From Sphingobacteriia bacterium (GTDB taxonomy: Bacteria > Bacteroidota > Bacteroidia > Chitinophagales > Chitinophagaceae), in assembly GCA_004294135.1 (NCBI GenBank), contig RDZY01000016.1:18036-82035 (forward strand): a stretch of DNA of 64,000 bases. Direction: 5' to 3'. The translations under genes and the position numbers were made by a program. Every line of letters starts with the position of its first letter. Position 1 is the stretch's first letter. The notes beneath the pieces were generated by a model, which was not told the DNA's origin, searched no databases, and was given only the letters and a program-made list of their open reading frames with translations. Shown piece after piece: positions 35,260 through 43,784 of this stretch.

Positions 35260-36471
35260 ATGTTTATGAAAACTATACTACAATCACTGTTCATTGGAAC
35301 AACCCTACTGGTATTCATCAGTTGTGGCAGCAATTCAGAAAAAAACAATCCCCTTGCTGATAAAAAAAATGCGTTAGAGAAATTAAAAACGCAACAAAAC
35401 ACACTGACCAATCAAATTAAAAATTTAGAGTCTGAAATCGCAAAACTCGATACCAGTTCTTCAAATAGTGTGGCTAAATTAGTTGGCATCTCTGCTGTTA
35501 CTGCGCAATATTTTGCACATTATATTGACTTGCAGGGCAATGTTACCTCCGATAATATTTCTTATGTTTCTCCACGCATGGGGCCTGGTCAAGTTCGCTC
35601 CATCTTTATTAAAAAAGGGGATATGGTTAAGCAGGGTCAGTTGCTTATTAAGCTGGACGACGCAGTAATGAAGCAATCTGTAATTGCAGCTCAAAAAAGT
35701 TTAGAGACTTTGAAAACACAACTCAGCTTTGCAAAAGACATCTATCAACGTCAAAATAATTTATGGAAAGAGGGAATTGGAACAGAAGTACAATTAATTT
35801 CTGCAAAGAACAATGTACAATCTTTAGAGCGACAAATTGCTGCTGGTGAAGAACAAATTAAAGTTGCAGAAGAACAACTTAGAGCCACCAATGTAACAGC
35901 TGATGTAGCAGGAGTAGTTGACGAATTAAATGTGCGAGTTGGTGAAATTTTTGCTGGCATAGCAGGCGTAATGCCACAGATTAAAATTGTAAATACTGCT
36001 GCTATGAAAGTGACTACAGAAATACCAGAAAATTACAGCAGCAAAATTAAACAAGGTTCCAAAGTCATTATTAATTTACCAGATATTAATAAAGTATTTA
36101 ATAGTTCAGTAGCAACTGCCAGCAGATCTATTAATGCAAATAATAGAAGTTTTGAAGTGGAAGTGAAAATTCCTTATGATGCCAATATTCGTCCAAATCA
36201 ATTGGCACAAATTAAGTTTTTAGATTATGAAGCTACTAATGCTATTGCTGTAAATATAAATACAGTGCAGACAGATGAAAAAGGTAAATATGTTTATATA
36301 GCAGTAGCCAATGGCAATAAGTTAATGGCAAGAAAAAAAATGATTGTTGTAGGCGAGGTTAATGGCCAGCTCATTGAAATTAAATCAGGTCTTAACGCAG
36401 GCGATCAATTGATAACAGAAGGTTATCAGAATATTTACGAGGGGCAATTATTGACCGTATTAGCAAAATAA
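35260..36471 (+). CDS. RND efflux periplasmic adaptor (MFP), lipoprotein
   Basis: FISC lipobox, lipoyl-like G.V..G..L..LD, SRSF.VEV and GL..GD..I..G. Confidence 0.92.
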   Translation: MFMKTILQSLFIGTTLLVFISCGSNSEKNNPLADKKNALEKLKTQQNTLTNQIKNLESEIAKLDTSSSNSVAKLVGISAVTAQYFAHYIDLQGNVTSDNISYVSPRMGPGQVRSIFIKKGDMVKQGQLLIKLDDAVMKQSVIAAQKSLETLKTQLSFAKDIYQRQNNLWKEGIGTEVQLISAKNNVQSLERQIAAGEEQIKVAEEQLRATNVTADVAGVVDELNVRVGEIFAGIAGVMPQIKIVNTAAMKVTTEIPENYSSKIKQGSKVIINLPDINKVFNSSVATASRSINANNRSFEVEVKIPYDANIRPNQLAQIKFLDYEATNAIAVNINTVQTDEKGKYVYIAVANGNKLMARKKMIVVGEVNGQLIEIKSGLNAGDQLITEGYQNIYEGQLLTVLAK

Positions 36472-36513
36472 ATTGTGAACAGAAGCAGTTCTGCTTCCAT
36501 CAAAAGATTGTTT

Positions 36514-39500
36514 ATGAAATTCATAGAAGGCATTGCCAAAAAGTTCAAAGCGTTTAAGCCTACCAGTTGGGCAGTTGATAATAAAACAGCGGTATACGTA
36601 ATTACAATCCTCATTTCTTTGTATGGATTGAATAAATTCAATACCCTACCCAAAGAACAGTTTCCCGATATTGTAGTACCAACCATTTCGGTAAGTACAG
36701 TGTATTTTGGTAATTCTCCTAAGGATATTGAAAATCTGGTAACCCGTCCCATTGAAAAACAACTAAAGTCAATCAGTGGTGCTAAAGTGAATAAGATTCA
36801 ATCTACTTCGCAACAGGATTTCAGCTTGATTGTTATTGAGTTCGATACCGATATCAAAACTGAAGTTGCTAAACAAAAAGTAAAAGATGCAGTTGATAGA
36901 GCACAAACCGATTTACCCAACGACCTAACTACACAGCCCAATGTGCAAGAGTTTGCTTTCAGCGAAATTCCCATCATGTTCGTTAATCTCAGCGGTGAAT
37001 TTGATGGCGTAAAACTAAAACGATATGCAGATAAAATGCAAGATCGATTTGAAGAGATGAAAGAAGTGAGCAGGGCAGAAATTGTTGGGGCACCAGAAAG
37101 AGAAATACAAATTAATATTGATCCAGCAAAAATGGCCGCGGCAAGAATTACTTTTCGTGATATTGAAACGGCTGTGAATTATGAAAACAAAGACATCAGC
37201 GGCGGCTTGGTAAAAGTAGGTGAGATGAACCGAAATATTAAGGTAAAAGGCCAGTTTAGTTCTGCTTTTGACATGACCAATATTCAAATAAAAAACGTAC
37301 TAGGCGCTCCTATTTATTTAAAAGATATTGCACAAATTATTGATACAGTAAAAGAGACTGAAAGCTATGCTAGATTAGGTGGAGCAAATGTTATTACACT
37401 TAATATTGTAAAAAGATCAGGTGAAAATTTGATCAATACAGCAGATGGAGTTAAAAAAATTGTTGCTGAAATGCAAGCCAGTCAAGAACTGCCAAAAGAC
37501 CTTAAAGTATTAATTACGGGCGACCAGAGCAAAAAAACAAGGACCTCTTTCAACGAATTGGTGAATACCATTATTATTGGTTTTTTATTGGTATTGCTGA
37601 TTCTTATGTTTTTTATGGGTGTTACAAATGCATTTTTTGTTGCATTAAGTGTACCACTTTCTGTATTTGTATCTTTTCTATTTTTACCACTAGCAGATTC
37701 AATTGTAGGATCACCCGTAACCTTAAATTTTATTGTATTATTTGCACTATTATTTGGGCTAGGAATTATAGTAGATGATGCCATTGTGGTTATTGAAAAT
37801 ACACACCGTATTTACAATAATGGAAAAGTAAAAATTGTTCGTTCAGCTAAAGAAGCTGCTGGTGAAGTATTTATTCCCGTGCTGGCTGGTACCGCAACAA
37901 CATTGGCACCATTCTTCCCGTTGTTATTATGGAAGGGGCTGATTGGCAAGTTCATGATTTACCTGCCAACCATGCTTATCTTAACATTAACTGCTTCTTT
38001 GATAGTTGCCTTCATCATCAATCCAGTTTTTGCAGTAAGCTTTATGAAACCTGAAGGACGCGAATTTGAAGAACCCAAAAAAGCTATTTTTAAAAAGTGG
38101 TGGTTCTGGGCATTTGCAGCTTTTGGTGTGCTATTTAATATTGCCGGCTGGCATGGATTTGGGAATTTCTTGATTTGTATGGATCTCTTGTTTTTATTGG
38201 AAAGATTTTTATTAAGAGGAATCATTCATTATTTCCAAGAAAAATTATTGCCTGGATTAATGAATCGCTATGAGAAACTACTGAAGTATTTACTTACAGG
38301 ATTTCGTCCAGGATGGTTGATGTTGGGACTGTTTCTTTTATTCCCTATCTCATTATTTTTATTGGTTATAAGAAATAATCCCAAGCCGTTTTTCCCTAGT
38401 GGAGATCCAAATTTCATTTACGTTTATTTAAAAATGCCTATCGGTACAAAAACACATACAACCGATTCAGTAGTGCGCATTTTAGAAAATAGGGTTTATA
38501 AAATATTAGGCGATAATAAACCAGATATACCTGGCAGTATTGTAGAAAGTGTGATCTCTAATGTTGCCGTAAGTGCCAATAACCCAAGTGATAATAACAG
38601 AAGCACCCAATCACACTTAGGTAGAATTCAAATATCCTTTATTGAATTTGAAAAAAGGCATGGAAAGAGTAGTGCTACCTATTTAACTGCAATTAGAAAA
38701 GAGATGAATGGTATTCCTGGTGCATCTATTGAAGTGGGTCAAGAAGATAGTGGGCCTCCGACTGAATTACCAGTAAATATTGAAATTGTAGGCGATAATT
38801 TTGAGTCTATTGCAAAAGTTGCATACGAATTACAAAATCATCTGGATACCAATCGTATTCCTGGAATTGAAAACTTACAAATGGATGTAGATTTAAACAA
38901 TCCAGAAATTACAGTAAATATCAATCGTCAACGGGCACTTGCTGAAGGATTAAGTACTGCTCAAATTGGTATGGAGCTTCGTACTGCAGTATTTGGTAAG
39001 GAAGTAAGTAAATTAAAAGATGGAGAAGATGAATATAAAATTCAACTACGCTATAAAGATATTGCTCGTAATAATATTAATGATTTGATGAATATGCGCA
39101 TTGTTTTTCGTGACTTCAATAGTGGTCAAGTTAAACAGATTCCATTGAATAGTGTTGCTACCATTGACTATACCAATACCACTGGTGGCGTTAAAAGAAA
39201 AAATCTTAAACGTACCATTCAGATTCAATCAAATGTTACCGATCCTTCTTTAACACCTGTGGTAAATGCAGAACTGGCTAAAAAAATAGAAATATTTAAA
39301 TCGAAAACACAGCTACCTGCTGATGTAACCATTCGTCAGACTGGAGAAAGTGAACAACAAGCGGAAACATTAACCTTCCTCGGAACTTCTATGGTAGCAG
39401 CTCTACTAATGATTTTCTTAATTCTAGTATTACAATTCAATAGTCTTAGTAAACCATTTATAGTACTTACAGAAATATTTTTCTCTATTATTGGGGTATT

Positions 39501-40074
39501 CATGGGCTATGCACTAACAGGCATGACAATGGCTACTATAATGGTTGGGGTTGGTATTGTGGGTCTCGCAGGTATTGTAATTAAAAATGGGATCTTATTA
39601 ATTGAATTTACCGATGAGTTAAGAGGCCGTGGATATAAAACAAGGGCAGCAGCAATTGAAGCTGGTAAAATTCGGATTATTCCAGTATTACTAACAGCAT
39701 TGGCAACCATTCTTGGATTGTTACCCTTAGCAATTGGTTTTAATATTGATTTTGTTTCCATGTTCCAGCATTTGAATCCTAAGATTTTCTTGGGTGGCGA
39801 TAGCGTAGTATTCTGGGGGCCTTTGAGTTGGACAATTATTTTTGGGCTTATTTTTTCCTTCTTTCTTACCTTAATTATGGTACCAAGTATGTACCTAATT
39901 TCAGAAAGATTACGTAGGCCAATGGAAAAATTTTATGGCACCAAATACATTGCACTATTGGGGTTTGCTGGGCCATTCTTTTTCATCTTTGTTGGCCTAA
40001 TGCTTTTGGTAAGAAGAATTCAAGGGAAAAAAGTATGGTTTGGCCAAATGAAACAATCACCTGTTAAAATTTAG
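36514..40074 (+). CDS. RND efflux permease (AcrB/AcrD/AcrF family)
   Basis: LPKEQFPDI, GIIVDDAIVVIEN, GIVIKNGILLIEF and R..PVLLTA. Start reassigned to MKFIEG at 36514. Confidence 0.95.
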   Translation: MKFIEGIAKKFKAFKPTSWAVDNKTAVYVITILISLYGLNKFNTLPKEQFPDIVVPTISVSTVYFGNSPKDIENLVTRPIEKQLKSISGAKVNKIQSTSQQDFSLIVIEFDTDIKTEVAKQKVKDAVDRAQTDLPNDLTTQPNVQEFAFSEIPIMFVNLSGEFDGVKLKRYADKMQDRFEEMKEVSRAEIVGAPEREIQINIDPAKMAAARITFRDIETAVNYENKDISGGLVKVGEMNRNIKVKGQFSSAFDMTNIQIKNVLGAPIYLKDIAQIIDTVKETESYARLGGANVITLNIVKRSGENLINTADGVKKIVAEMQASQELPKDLKVLITGDQSKKTRTSFNELVNTIIIGFLLVLLILMFFMGVTNAFFVALSVPLSVFVSFLFLPLADSIVGSPVTLNFIVLFALLFGLGIIVDDAIVVIENTHRIYNNGKVKIVRSAKEAAGEVFIPVLAGTATTLAPFFPLLLWKGLIGKFMIYLPTMLILTLTASLIVAFIINPVFAVSFMKPEGREFEEPKKAIFKKWWFWAFAAFGVLFNIAGWHGFGNFLICMDLLFLLERFLLRGIIHYFQEKLLPGLMNRYEKLLKYLLTGFRPGWLMLGLFLLFPISLFLLVIRNNPKPFFPSGDPNFIYVYLKMPIGTKTHTTDSVVRILENRVYKILGDNKPDIPGSIVESVISNVAVSANNPSDNNRSTQSHLGRIQISFIEFEKRHGKSSATYLTAIRKEMNGIPGASIEVGQEDSGPPTELPVNIEIVGDNFESIAKVAYELQNHLDTNRIPGIENLQMDVDLNNPEITVNINRQRALAEGLSTAQIGMELRTAVFGKEVSKLKDGEDEYKIQLRYKDIARNNINDLMNMRIVFRDFNSGQVKQIPLNSVATIDYTNTTGGVKRKNLKRTIQIQSNVTDPSLTPVVNAELAKKIEIFKSKTQLPADVTIRQTGESEQQAETLTFLGTSMVAALLMIFLILVLQFNSLSKPFIVLTEIFFSIIGVFMGYALTGMTMATIMVGVGIVGLAGIVIKNGILLIEFTDELRGRGYKTRAAAIEAGKIRIIPVLLTALATILGLLPLAIGFNIDFVSMFQHLNPKIFLGGDSVVFWGPLSWTIIFGLIFSFFLTLIMVPSMYLISERLRRPMEKFYGTKYIALLGFAGPFFFIFVGLMLLVRRIQGKKVWFGQMKQSPVKI

Positions 40075-40077
40075 AAA

Positions 40078-40872
40078 ATGAAAAACAATCATGAAATAGA
40101 TTATCGAATTTTTGGAGAGGAAATGCAGTATGTAGAAGTAGAACTAGATTACAATGAGACTGCTGTTGCTGAGCCAGGTGCTTTTATGATGATGGAAGAT
40201 GGAATAGTAATGGAGACTATGTTTGGTGATGGTAGTCAACAAAATACCAGCATATTGGGGAAATTATTAAACGCAGGTAAAAGAGTATTGACAGGTGAAA
40301 GTCTTTTTATGACTGCTTTTACCAATATAAATCAAGGAAAAAGAAGGGTTAGTTTTGCATCCCCTTATCCAGGAAAAATAATTCCAGTGGATTTATCTCG
40401 TTTCAATAACCGAATCATTTGCCAAAAAGATACTTTTCTTTGTGCTGCCAAAGGGGTAAATATTGGTATTGAATTTCAACGAAAACTAGGGACAGGGTTA
40501 TTTGGTGGTGAAGGTTTTATTATGCAGAAATTAGAAGGCGATGGAATGGCCTTTATGCACGCTGGAGGGCATGTATTTGAGAAGCAACTAAACCCAGGCG
40601 AAGTTCTTAAAATTGATACCGGCTGTATTGTTGGCTTCACATCATCTGTTGCCTATGATATACAGTTTGTTGGAGGAATTAAGAATACAATTTTTGGTGG
40701 CGAAGGCTTGTTCTTTGCATTGCTTACTGGACCAGGAACGGTATGGATTCAAAGCTTACCAGTTAGTCGATTGGCGGGTAGAATTTTACAATATGCTACC
40801 GTTCATAGAAAAGAGGAAGGTAGTATATTAGGTGGATTAGGAAATCTTCTTGATGGGGATGGAAAATGGTAA
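40078..40872 (+). CDS. TIGR00266 / AIM24 family protein
   Basis: IFGEEMQYVEVEL, GKR..TGESLFM, LFGGEGFIMQKLEGDG, DTGC, FGGEGLF and WIQSLP. Confidence 0.92.
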   Translation: MKNNHEIDYRIFGEEMQYVEVELDYNETAVAEPGAFMMMEDGIVMETMFGDGSQQNTSILGKLLNAGKRVLTGESLFMTAFTNINQGKRRVSFASPYPGKIIPVDLSRFNNRIICQKDTFLCAAKGVNIGIEFQRKLGTGLFGGEGFIMQKLEGDGMAFMHAGGHVFEKQLNPGEVLKIDTGCIVGFTSSVAYDIQFVGGIKNTIFGGEGLFFALLTGPGTVWIQSLPVSRLAGRILQYATVHRKEEGSILGGLGNLLDGDGKW

Positions 40873-41550
40873 TCATTCAAATTCATGAGGATCATACAAC
40901 CTATTTTTTACTGCATAAACAACAAGACCTGCTGAATTTTTAGCATAGGTTTTGTTGTATAATATTTCTCGATAGCTTTCAACAGTCCTTATACCAATTC
41001 TAAGCTTTTTTGCAATTTCTTTATTACTAAACTGCTTACAAATAAGTATTAACACTTCTATTTCTCTTTCAGTTAAATCAATTGCGCTATTTTTTCTATG
41101 CGGATGATAACGGTTATTTGAAATTAAGTAGGTTAATTTTTTTTCGATAGAATTACAGTAATAGCTTCTACCTTCATGTACTGCTACTGCTGCTCTTAGC
41201 AATTCTTGTCGATTTGTATTTTTAAGTAAGTAACCACTAGCACCAGCACCAAGCATTGAAACAATTAAGTCATCATCATTAAACATAGAAAGTGCTATAA
41301 TCTTGGTTTTTAAGTTAGCCAATCGCAATTGCTTACAAAATTCTATTCCGTTCATTTTTGGCATCTGTATGTCTACAAATACAATATCAAGAAATTCAGT
41401 TTTACAAAGTTTTAAAAGTTCAATTCCGTTTTCAGCATCGCCTAGCAACTGCATTTCTGGTTGATCTTTTAGTAATAATTTAAACCCATTCCTAAAAATT
41501 TCATGGTCATCTGCTATGGCAATTCTAATTGGATTTTGTAGGTAATTCAT
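40873..41550 (-). CDS. NarL/LuxR family response regulator
   Basis: IAIADDH, phospho-acceptor in VFVDIQMP, GASGYLLK; LTEREIEVL..IA..L.I..RTVESYR HTH. Confidence 0.95.
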   Translation of the reverse strand: MNYLQNPIRIAIADDHEIFRNGFKLLLKDQPEMQLLGDAENGIELLKLCKTEFLDIVFVDIQMPKMNGIEFCKQLRLANLKTKIIALSMFNDDDLIVSMLGAGASGYLLKNTNRQELLRAAVAVHEGRSYYCNSIEKKLTYLISNNRYHPHRKNSAIDLTEREIEVLILICKQFSNKEIAKKLRIGIRTVESYREILYNKTYAKNSAGLVVYAVKNRLYDPHEFE

Positions 41551-42296
41551 TTTATTGGAATTTCAATGGTTAGAATTGTTCCTTTCCCTTTTTCAGAATA
41601 TAGATAGAAAATACCATTCATTAAATCAGTTCTATTTTGAATGCTACTGAATCCTCTTCCTGTATATGGTTCAACTTCATTGCTTACATTAAATCCTATG
41701 CCGTCATCTGAGCAAACAAGTACCAGCTTTTTTTTATACTCACTAAATATAATTTTCATTTGTCGAGCCTTAGCATGTTTGAAAACATTATTCACTGCCT
41801 CTTGAACAATTCGAAAAATCTGAATTGCTTGATTTTTGTCCATTGTTAGCAATGGAGGATAACTAAAAAATATCTGCAACGGATTAGATTGTTCCAGTGA
41901 ATAAATTAATTCTTGTATTGCCGCAAATGCTCCTTTTCGCTCTAAGATTGTTGGTAAGAGGTTATTCGATATTTCTCTAAGCTTCATCAGTATTTCATCT
42001 AGTTGATCGCTCGCATTTAAGAGGTATGAAAATTGATTTTTAGAACTATAAATGGCATTCCCAAGTTGAAATTTAATTACTGATAAAATTGGGCCAAGGT
42101 CGTCATGCAAATCAGATGCTATTCTAGCTCTTTCTTTTTCCATTGCATTAATTCCTGCTAAGGAATTTGCCTTTCGTAATTCTAGGTTTGTATGCTGTTG
42201 TTGAATAATTAATACTGCTAAGAAAAAAATAATTGCACCCACCAATGCTATTGCAATGAGTATTGAAAAGTACATTTTTGCTTCTTTGGCATCCAT
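41547..42296 (-). CDS. HisKA_3 histidine kinase with a single TM helix and no sensor domain
   Basis: ERARIASDLHDDLG H-box, RIVQEAVNN..KHA N-box, SDDGIGF and GKGT; ATGA overlap with the regulator. Confidence 0.93.
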   Translation of the reverse strand: MDAKEAKMYFSILIAIALVGAIIFFLAVLIIQQQHTNLELRKANSLAGINAMEKERARIASDLHDDLGPILSVIKFQLGNAIYSSKNQFSYLLNASDQLDEILMKLREISNNLLPTILERKGAFAAIQELIYSLEQSNPLQIFFSYPPLLTMDKNQAIQIFRIVQEAVNNVFKHAKARQMKIIFSEYKKKLVLVCSDDGIGFNVSNEVEPYTGRGFSSIQNRTDLMNGIFYLYSEKGKGTILTIEIPIK

Positions 42297-42910
42297 AATA
42301 TGACTATTACATAAAAGATATTGGTTACTAAATTTACATAAACATTGATTCTGTGCAACTGAATTCGAAAAATTTTGCTGGAATTAAGCCCATTAATCCA
42401 AAAAATTTCTACTATTGCTTTAGAAGTATAAAAGAATATCAGGCTAATACAAGCAATAAAAATATGATTCTGGGCTAATTTTTGACCCTTTTTTGATACA
42501 ACTGATCTAATTGAGTGTATACTCATCAGTATAATCAATAAGCTAAAAATCACTCTAGAATAACCATTAAAAATATAAAAAGAGGAAAAAATAAAATTCT
42601 CATATATCCAAAAAAGTGCAATGCTCAGCGCTAAAAATAAAAAGAAATTTTTTTTATCTGAGAAAAGATTCCAGCACTTGAACTGATACAACAATATTAC
42701 TGTAGAAAACAAAACATAAATATTGCTATTGATTACATTGGTATGATACAAACTTATAAAAATTGTAGATAAAATTTCATTGATAAAACCCAGCCATAAA
42801 AATAAAATGAAAGGATAATTAGCCTGATGAATGGTTCTAATTTTTATCAAGCCAATTATTGCAGCAATCCCTATTAAATAGGCTAAAAATTCGGTTAGTT
42901 TATAGTTCAT
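42248..42910 (-). CDS. Hypothetical seven-TM membrane protein
   Basis: Seven hydrophobic segments by eye in 220 aa; polar residues in TM2/TM3 (NE, NSNIY). Confidence 0.8.
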   Translation of the reverse strand: MNYKLTEFLAYLIGIAAIIGLIKIRTIHQANYPFILFLWLGFINEILSTIFISLYHTNVINSNIYVLFSTVILLYQFKCWNLFSDKKNFFLFLALSIALFWIYENFIFSSFYIFNGYSRVIFSLLIILMSIHSIRSVVSKKGQKLAQNHIFIACISLIFFYTSKAIVEIFWINGLNSSKIFRIQLHRINVYVNLVTNIFYVIVILWMPKKQKCTFQYSLQ

Positions 42911-42927
42911 TATTTACATAAGTATTA

Positions 42928-43287
42928 CTAGGAATTTAATGAAGAACTTGGGGGACAATCATCTGGGCATCTTCGCGAATCATTCCATAAATAAGGATCT
43001 GCTTCTAATGAGATAACTGAATCTGCTGGAGGAAGTATGTCTTGGTCGGCATCATTAACGGCCACCAAAATTGCATGTACTTTAAACCCGTCGTCCATTC
43101 CATAGTAGATTCTAAGTTTTTCACAACCTGACTTTGCCAACAAATCCTCTATACTTTTTCGACTAAATGTTTCACAAGTAGCTAAAATTTTCTTTCCCTG
43201 AAATGCTTGCGCTATGATTTGTTCTTTTTGAATTCTGTAGAAACTAGTCATTTTAATACCCTGTTGAAGTGAAATTGGTTTACTCAT
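42928..43287 (-). CDS. Hypothetical 119-aa protein with RIYYG motif and C-terminal CPDDCP
   Basis: ATG at 43287 follows an A-rich leader; no signal peptide; 17 nt upstream of the 7TM gene. Confidence 0.8.
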   Translation of the reverse strand: MSKPISLQQGIKMTSFYRIQKEQIIAQAFQGKKILATCETFSRKSIEDLLAKSGCEKLRIYYGMDDGFKVHAILVAVNDADQDILPPADSVISLEADPYLWNDSRRCPDDCPPSSSLNS

Positions 43288-43343
43288 TGTGTTGTTTTTT
43301 ATTGATTGAATAAAGCAAGTTGCGAAAAATTTAATATACATAT

Positions 43344-43361
43344 CCCCGTATTAATACGGGG
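43344..43361. promoter_or_regulatory. Perfect 18-bp palindrome CCCCGTATTAATACGGGG, putative operator
   Basis: Exactly self-complementary, no loop, GC-rich in an AT-rich spacer upstream of the four-gene operon. Confidence 0.6.
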
Positions 43362-43406: not shown

Positions 43407-43784
43407 TTATCCGTTCAGCTTCAAATATTTCTCGAGTAAAGTCTGGTGTTTTTCAAGTAATTCGTAGTACCGAAACTTCCACTCATCTATATATTTTGCA
43501 GCTTCTTCAAGGGTTTGCGGAGGTGTTTCAGTCAAGTAGAAGTTACTCGGCTCTTTTACAAAATTCTCGAGTAATTCGGGAAAGTATATACTCAGATCTA
43601 CGTGTAAAATTTTTCCGTAATTTAATAAAATATCAATGGGTAGTTCCGGATCATTGATATGATTGTAGTAGCTTGATCTGCTGTAACCGGCTTTTCTTAC
43701 CAAGTTGGTTATAGACATGCCAGCACTAGCTACAACTTGTTGCAGCAATTCACCTCTATGAAATTTTTTATTATTTTTTTTCAA
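43407..43784 (-). CDS. XRE/Cro-like HTH protein with C-terminal coiled coil
   Basis: HRGELLQQVV..SITNLVRKAGYSRSSYYNH HTH-like segment; WKFRYYELLEKHQTLLE heptads; TTG start. Confidence 0.72.
   Translation of the reverse strand: MKKNNKKFHRGELLQQVVASAGMSITNLVRKAGYSRSSYYNHINDPELPIDILLNYGKILHVDLSIYFPELLENFVKEPSNFYLTETPPQTLEEAAKYIDEWKFRYYELLEKHQTLLEKYLKLNG

Follow-up and report, generated by a model that had tools for sequence, protein, structure and literature searches.

A conserved Cys-tailed small protein linked to a seven-helix membrane protein and a minimal sensor kinase in Chitinophagaceae, a candidate accessory subunit of a two-component system

The locus described here raises the question of what a protein of 119 amino acids, which starts with MSKPISLQQ and ends in NDSRRCPDDCPPSSSLNS (short form of the end: RRCPDDCPPSSSLNS), does next to the genes of a sensor kinase and its response regulator. 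It is encoded in a stretch of 64,000 nucleotides from a Sphingobacteriia bacterium, which was analysed as a whole and is called the window in the following. The original prediction regarded the C-terminal end as a cleavable, cyclisable signal peptide and the folded core as the chaperone carrying it; a redox or metal sensor was named as the fallback. We found that the open reading frame exists as described and that it lies on the minus strand, which had not been given before (Table 1). An alternative start at 43341 would lead to a protein of 137 amino acids; the homologues share the start of the 119-aa form, at MS-x-(F/P)-I-S-L. The core strings TFSRKSIEDLL, KLRIYYG and HAILVAVN were all found in the protein. 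Its Cys motif is encoded by TGC CCA GAT GAT TGT CCC, which translates to C-P-D-D-C-P, with a spacing of Cx3C and not CxxC and with a proline after each cysteine.

Table 1. Features of the four-gene cassette and of its first product (positions in the window).
Feature	Position	Strand	Remarks
CDS of the 119-aa CPxxC-tailed protein	42928..43287	minus	stop codon 42928-42930; cassette gene 1
Alpha/beta core, residues 1-86	43030..43287	minus	predicted by AF2 (pLDDT 86-97); conservation; coevolution of the hairpin contact Y62-H71/A72
Core elements			helices 7-20 and 43-50; beta-hairpin 57-64/70-77; residues E39, R59, Y61, G63, H71
Acidic linker, residues 87-99, of variable length	42991..43029	minus	mostly gap columns in the family; pLDDT 67
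Conserved C-terminal module, residues 100-119	42931..42990	minus	conservation, pLDDT 86-89, couplings; predicted docking on the core
C107-P-D-D-C111-P112 (Cys-Pro-x-x-Cys-Pro, Cx3C)	42952..42969	minus	sequence; 98-99% conserved; persists in divergent cassettes
220-aa stand-alone seven-helix membrane protein	42248..42910	minus	N-out/C-in; 17 nt downstream of the small gene
Overlap of the kinase and 7TM genes, 49 nt	42248..42296	minus	kinase gene begins within the 7TM gene, in frame -1; ATGGATNCC conserved
249-aa minimal sensor kinase, one TM helix, HisKA_3 and HATPase_c	41547..42296	minus	all catalytic boxes intact
225-aa NarL/LuxR-type response regulator (Response_reg and GerE)	40873..41550	minus	4-nt overlap with the kinase gene

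The features of the small protein are far beyond chance and define a real, conserved family. A word-indexed search yielded 56 close homologues, all of them unnamed or annotated as hypothetical, and an exhaustive phmmer search of 1.84 billion representatives extended the family to at least 326 clusters at 50% identity with E<=1e-3, 180 of them with E<=1e-10. No match to the small protein was obtained in scans of Pfam, NCBIfam, PADLOC and PHROGs or in phmmer and profile searches of the PDB sequences, and when the 56 aligned members were all run against Pfam, no meaningful weak match recurred among them. Literature searches found neither the family nor the cassette described anywhere. Apparent N-terminally extended fusions (P0066, P0080, P0122 and others) turned out to be miscalled starts and not domain fusions.

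Among the named genomes, the carriers are mainly Chitinophagaceae (Niabella, Ferruginibacter, Flavisolibacter, Chitinophaga, Lacibacter and Segetibacter) together with related Sphingobacteriia. The contig of one cassette (L041) is labelled as a metagenome-assembled genome of Acinetobacter pittii; every other carrier belongs to the Bacteroidota, and this contig was probably mis-binned. The small gene is present as a single copy in the 2.6-Mb genome to which the window belongs, and its distribution among relatives is patchy (5 of 25 genomes of the genus and 19 of 201 of the order). Decayed copies were also observed, one being a small gene with an in-frame TAG (G147:C1:1002507-1002815) and another a cassette 7TM gene with an in-frame TAA beside a truncated small gene (G048:C4:133727-134711). 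As far as can be read from their sequences, these copies are consistent with an accessory module that is gained and lost.

Residue conservation was calculated over 238 near-full-length members. R59 is present in 100% of these, P108 in 99%, and E39, Y61, C107 and C111 in 98% each; the Cys motif is thus conserved. The other tail residues follow with 90% for L117, 89% for P112, 87% for S115 and 83% each for N118 and R106, and the consensus of the C-terminal module reads I-x-E-x-G-x-R-C-P-x-x-C-P-P-x-S-P-L-N. CP..C was found in 185 of 205 retrieved sequences, the exceptions being mostly fragments. In the rare Cys-less members the two cysteines are lost jointly, as in the full-length proteins P0135 and P0157. 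The predicted tail with CPxxCP behind RR was borne out with respect to the motif, but the RR is not a conserved dibasic site, since position 105 is variable. H71 (77%, with R or K instead) and C55 (85%, with A or V instead) are less conserved. A Cys2His or Cys3His metal site with H71 and C55 as a universal feature was ruled out on these values, and no complete intramolecular metal site can be named because neither residue is universal.

A hydrophobic N-terminal segment is missing in 236 of 238 full-length members, in agreement with the expected lack of a Sec or lipoprotein signal; the other two are miscalled starts. The protein of the window is, by sequence, probably cytoplasmic because it is signal-less. 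The acidic linker had been recognised correctly; its length varies across the family, and in some members it is longer by 30 or more low-complexity residues.

An AF2 model built with the 56-sequence alignment reached a mean pLDDT of 89.1 and a pTM of 0.80. Short strands are additionally predicted at 100-102 and 105-106, and the linker is the sole weak stretch of the model, while the residues behind it are again modelled with good scores. Foldseek searches of this model revealed no similar fold in the PDB (best TM 0.26, E about 1) and no match in BFVD (best TM for both databases together 0.26-0.27, E>=0.3). Hence the core, for which an AlphaFold and Foldseek comparison had been proposed, resembles no known enzyme by fold, and the Pfam, NCBIfam and PDB profile searches were likewise empty. 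Coevolution was analysed by gap-masked, APC-corrected mutual information, which replaced a first mean-field DCA that was discarded because gap artefacts were dominant. With 238 sequences the statistical depth is low and the result is supportive only. The analysis recovered the expected contacts R43-E47 within a helix, Y62-H71/A72 in the hairpin and I46-L74. Couplings between tail and core were A36-R106 (rank 8), S45-W101 (rank 13), D83-S115 (rank 21) and T14/R18-L117/N118 (ranks 41-51). Model and mutual information agree, at modest depth, in the predicted docking of the tail on the core.

The strongest fact about the small gene is its linkage to a cassette of 7TM protein, kinase and regulator. 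About 55 of the 58 loci whose flanks were long enough show the order small gene, 7TM gene, kinase gene and regulator gene, and so does every one of the long metagenomic contigs examined. Among the genomes of an order-level sample, both the small gene and the 7TM gene were detected in 13, and in all 13 the two lie next to each other. The gap between the two measures about 5-60 nt, even across very divergent cassettes, while the other flanking genes vary. Genetic linkage to a kinase and a regulator across lineages, by which an accessory component of a two-component system can be recognised, is present in this family, and HisKA_3, HATPase_c, Response_reg and GerE, the Pfam domains of a HisKA_3/NarL system, were all detected. 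At one locus (L011:2059-5422), the small protein and the 7TM protein are followed by a TonB-dependent receptor with a Plug domain, in the usual place of the kinase and the regulator.

In 48 of 49 loci, the kinase start codon falls into the 3' end of the 7TM gene, in frame -1, and the two genes share 28-55 nt. The element ATGGATNCC is dual-coding, giving W-x-P in the frame of the membrane protein and M-D-x in that of the kinase, and the distance from the 7TM start to the kinase start is exactly 614 nt in each of the four loci that were checked first. Judged from this arrangement of the genes, 7TM protein and kinase form what we read as a conserved split sensor kinase with translational coupling via the -1 overlap. 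The catalytic residues H64, N170, D197xG199 and G213xG215 of the kinase are conserved to 92-100%. Its single TM helix leads directly into the DHp domain, without a sensor domain of its own. Since the kinase lacks an input domain, the input must come from partners. In two loci the corresponding regions differ by 1 nt in a C-run (CCCC vs CCCCCC region), and in one of them 7TM protein and kinase are fused to a 460-aa ORF (L032:5390-6772 vs L031:5394-6766). As a genuine fusion this was rejected, because it is topologically inconsistent, with the C-terminus of the 7TM protein inside and the N-terminus of the kinase outside; an assembly error or a pseudogene is more probable.

The AF2 model of the 7TM protein consists of seven long helices (pLDDT 91, pTM 0.86), and the positive-inside rule places its N-terminus outside and its C-terminus inside (K+R 9.1 inside vs 2.2 outside). 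Foldseek returned only a generic, non-significant likeness to GPCRs, rhodopsins and PAQRs (TM<=0.53, E>=0.2), and no Pfam model matched the 220-aa protein at E<=0.1, hence none of the 7TMR-DISM, 7TMR-HD and 5TMR-LYT models. E45, N63, E168, N193, W101 and P208 are nearly invariant, and the first four of these form a buried Glu/Asn/Glu/Asn cluster. No cysteine or histidine is invariant. A role as an AgrB- or CPBP-like protease was ruled out on this ground and for want of a fold match.

Flanking genes were counted around L008-L059. Recurrent, though not universal, neighbours are SusD-like lipoproteins (22 loci), AraC-type regulators (15 loci), MauE-like membrane proteins (8 loci), a secreted 144-aa protein (8 loci) and a 250-aa protein (7 loci), the last two of unknown kind. 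The SusD-like genes are usually convergent and 3-4 kb downstream, and the AraC-type genes follow directly after the response regulator. Possibly, these neighbours are members of the regulon; none of the five kinds occurs in the window. Here, the response regulator is directly followed by a convergent gene for an AIM24-family protein (40078-40872, plus strand, Pfam E 5e-72) with an RND efflux pair beyond it (35260-40074), and neither the AIM24 gene nor the RND pair is conserved beside the cassette elsewhere. Upstream of the cassette and outside the conserved block, a 125-aa protein with a weak Cro/C1-type HTH is encoded at 43407-43784 on the minus strand. It recurs only in L006, in the same position, and in L004/L005 and L021, in other positions and orientations. 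Between this gene and the cassette lies a perfect 18-bp palindrome (43344-43361, CCCCGTATTAATACGGGG). In the closest relative, L006, the flanks of which are 95% identical, the differences cluster in the arms of the palindrome and are not compensatory, and its hairpin folding is unremarkable (z = -1.1). Going by these sequences, there is no obvious sign that it is kept as an operator or terminator. Scans for promoters and terminators were uninformative.

Does the small protein give rise to a signal? With its small first product, polytopic membrane protein, kinase and regulator, the cassette resembles agrBDCA and comQXPA in layout, and ComP/ComA are likewise of the HisKA_3/NarL type. Accordingly one may picture an Agr- or Com-like autoinduction, in which the tail would be cleaved off its carrier and oxidised to a small disulfide loop, and the 7TM protein and the kinase would sense it after its release. 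Such a role would be in line with the position of the motif, which is always found close to the C-terminus (at 2-21 residues) and follows a flexible tether that varies in length, with the conserved arginine before the first cysteine, and with the acidic buried cluster in the outer half of the 7TM protein. Exported relatives, described below, show in addition that the motif can act outside the cytoplasm. However, of the expected combination of an invariant Cys motif and variable flanking tail residues, only the invariant motif was found. Over 300 random locus pairs, the mean pairwise identity of the tail 13-mer was 70%, vs 53% for the whole small protein, 41.5% for the regulator, 35% for the kinase and 34.5% for the 7TM protein. 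The tail is the most conserved and not the most variable part of the cassette, and a genome with four cassettes has RCPDIC in three of the tails, although the 7TM partners of these are only 50-76% identical. Moreover, all 119 residues are conserved and confidently folded, with the tail ordered, coupled to the core and docked on it in the prediction, and the RR offers no conserved cleavage site. Neither finding that was to refute the original prediction, an unconserved Cys motif or a core matching a known enzyme, turned up, but its main idea, a cleavable signal peptide on a chaperone core, does not stand up to the check on tail variability that came with it.

The absence of an exporter or protease from the block, which had been noted at the outset, extends to the family: none of the genes that recur over 60 loci encodes a dedicated processing enzyme or an exporter, and the 7TM protein lacks both an invariant Cys, His or Ser and a peptidase or transporter fold. 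Neither the variable mature segment nor the processing enzyme of an AgrD- or ComX-like pheromone or RiPP precursor was found. From agrBDCA and comQXPA the cassette also differs in that its first product is a folded domain of 119 amino acids, with the putative signal segment as the most conserved part, and in that there is no AgrB-like catalytic Cys/His in the 7TM protein and no ComQ-like enzyme. In a Chitinophaga locus (L060:4530-5267, plus strand), we found a 245-aa tandem duplication of the domain with GLPCPASCP in each repeat, in which the first motif is internal, which is difficult to reconcile with a cleaved tail. Both repeats match the family profile through their own GLPCPASCP (hhalign 97.7% and 97.9%). 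Divergent to the tandem gene lies a cassette (L060:1377-4110, minus strand) with a first gene of 140 aa that ends exactly with ...GGLPCPSYCP; because this distant member ends there, the extension PPSSPLN is specific to a subfamily. The chemistry of the motif also speaks against a closed loop, as synthetic CPXXC peptides favour intermolecular disulfide pairing from motif to motif (PMC11379947). They carry the identical C-P-x-x-C, and their pairing as dimers matches the natural tandem variant of L060. They are, however, designed peptides oxidised in vitro (PMC11379947), whereas the window protein would be a putative cytoplasmic case, and the comparison is one by analogy.

To follow the family beyond its clear members, 26 divergent cassettes were gathered via the 7TM profile or weak matches of the small protein. 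Of 23 ORFs that directly precede the 7TM gene in these cassettes, 16 have CP..C at a distance of 2-21 residues from the C-terminus, vs a background of 1.9% at the same loci (P=5e-23); among those missed by the family HMM, it is 5 of 12 (P=1.6e-6). Clearly homologous proteins with the core G-x-R-I-Y-x-G are encoded at ten loci (L063, L066-L068, L072, L081-L084 and L086). Five others (L064, L071, L073, L074 and L078) start with a lipoprotein or anchor signal. For L074, the alignment with the family profile begins at the hairpin and extends through ...PCPSTCDMSSPLM (hhalign 81%, E 1e-5). L071 aligns through the motif alone and is thus a putative homologue. Cys-less variants are L065, L075 and L076 (with signal) and L079 (without signal).

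The topology of the 7TM protein is identical in all divergent cassettes. Because the exported relatives keep this topology, the domain and its CPxxC seem, judging from the signals in the sequences, to act on either side of the membrane next to one and the same kind of receptor-kinase module. It follows that one fixed docking face on the 7TM protein cannot hold for all members. With the domain on both sides, a site of action outside the cytoplasm retains a small probability.

Taking these data together, we give about an even chance to a role of the small protein as a folded subunit with accessory or co-sensor function in the 7TM-kinase signalling cassette, as opposed to that of a peptide precursor. 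The protein would be stable and folded, with a core, a flexible acidic tether and a Pro-rich C-terminal module, and the latter would fold back on the core and display the two cysteines of C-P-x-x-C. It may bind the 7TM-kinase complex and modulate the output of the kinase, with the Cys pair as an element regulated through thiol chemistry. A reversible intermolecular disulfide between two motifs, leading to dimerisation, is one option; a bound thiophilic ligand, a metal or haem via Cys-Pro, would be the other. Most plausibly, the Cys pair supplies thiol chemistry of the redox or metal type, and the conserved pair fits the redox or metal sensor of the original prediction. The L060 tandem relative, each domain of which has its own CPxxCP, points to a functional dimer in which two motifs would lie side by side. 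That the small protein and its tail are the most conserved parts is as expected of a constant mechanistic subunit with diverging receptor parts.

In function, the small protein comes closest to accessory components such as those in NlpE-CpxAR, LiaF-LiaSR, UhpC-UhpBA and NreA-NreBC, with which it shares no common sequence or fold. In LiaF-LiaS-LiaR, VraT-VraS-VraR and UhpC-UhpB-UhpA, a sensor-poor HisKA_3 kinase with a NarL-type regulator receives its input from a separate membrane protein, and the cassette likewise combines such a kinase and regulator with a separately encoded membrane partner. In contrast to those systems, the partner is a compact seven-helix bundle without a Pfam match and not a LiaF/DUF2154 or MFS protein, and the cassette adds a fourth, soluble, Cys-tailed component. 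The copper site CPDxCP of Sco1/SenC, the zinc switch HxxxCxxC of ZAS proteins and Cys-Pro haem regulatory motifs serve as leads only. R-C-P-D-x-C-P locally resembles the Sco motif, but there is no thioredoxin fold (best TM 0.26) and the partner histidine, H71, is conserved to only 77%, with R or K in its place. With ZAS proteins the protein would share a Cys pair as thiol switch, but its spacing is C-x3-C and it has no His at -4. The two conserved Cys-Pro dipeptides (P108 and P112) are, in their local sequence, similar to haem regulatory motifs.

The NlpE-CpxA-CpxR system of E. coli is similar in that the sensor kinase receives information from an accessory protein that bears a conserved Cys motif, and in concept this likeness is strongest for the exported lipoprotein-type relatives L074, L073 and L071. 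The two proteins are related neither in sequence nor in fold, there is no 7TM partner in the Cpx system, and the window protein has no signal peptide. NlpE is also not co-operonic with cpxAR. For NlpE, it has been shown that the CXXC motif is dispensable for Cpx signalling to CpxA (PMC6538781). By analogy, the conservation of a Cys motif in an accessory sensor does not by itself make it the element that senses.

In a second reading, for which NlpE is a precedent, the protein would be a purely structural adaptor or scaffold of the 7TM-kinase complex and its Cys-Pro module a rigid docking clasp with structural cysteines. The tail is Pro-rich, highly conserved and coevolving with the core, Cys-less members exist that are otherwise intact, and the extreme conservation compared with the receptor parts fits a constant structural role. 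However, the near-complete conservation of the cysteines (98%), their joint loss and the persistence of the motif beyond HMM detection exceed what would be expected for two non-functional side chains, and a structural disulfide is unlikely to be kept in the reducing cytoplasm. We consider this reading unlikely.

A bolder version of the accessory model is unlikely in our estimation. Here, the 7TM bundle would signal to the sensor-less kinase through or with its small partner, the tethered Cys-Pro tail would be a thiol-gated plug or ligand, and the partner would have moved between the sides of the membrane. If true, this receptor + transducer + kinase arrangement would be a modular architecture of a new class with no described bacterial counterpart.

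Alternatively, the small protein might be co-transcribed as an effector of the regulon, such as a protective or chaperone protein that works through thiols, with no part in the control of the kinase. Being encoded in the same operon, the small gene could be induced by the regulator, and the presence of the domain in both compartments is easier to understand for an effector than for a regulator with a fixed interface. However, the small gene is always placed directly before the 7TM gene even in the very divergent cassettes, while the other flanks vary, and the effectors of two-component systems are rarely so tightly and universally linked to the sensor genes, which makes this quite an unlikely explanation. 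Very unlikely, finally, is a cleaved, specificity-bearing, disulfide-looped pheromone, because the conserved tail, the loops shared by paralogues, the lack of a peptidase or exporter, the tandem variant and the pairing chemistry of CPXXC together argue against it.

Overall, the cassette is a two-component system with two undescribed accessory families. Accessory proteins of two-component systems are well known, but the Cys-tailed domain and the 7TM bundle have no counterpart in Pfam, NCBIfam or the PDB, and the pair is linked across hundreds of Bacteroidota lineages. The occurrence of the domain with and without an export signal beside the same receptor represents a natural experiment on the side of the membrane from which an accessory sensor acts. 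Knowing the signal of the pair would annotate a recurrent hypothetical cassette of soil and freshwater Chitinophagaceae, and it could reveal a new route by which a thiol, metal or membrane signal enters a minimal histidine kinase.
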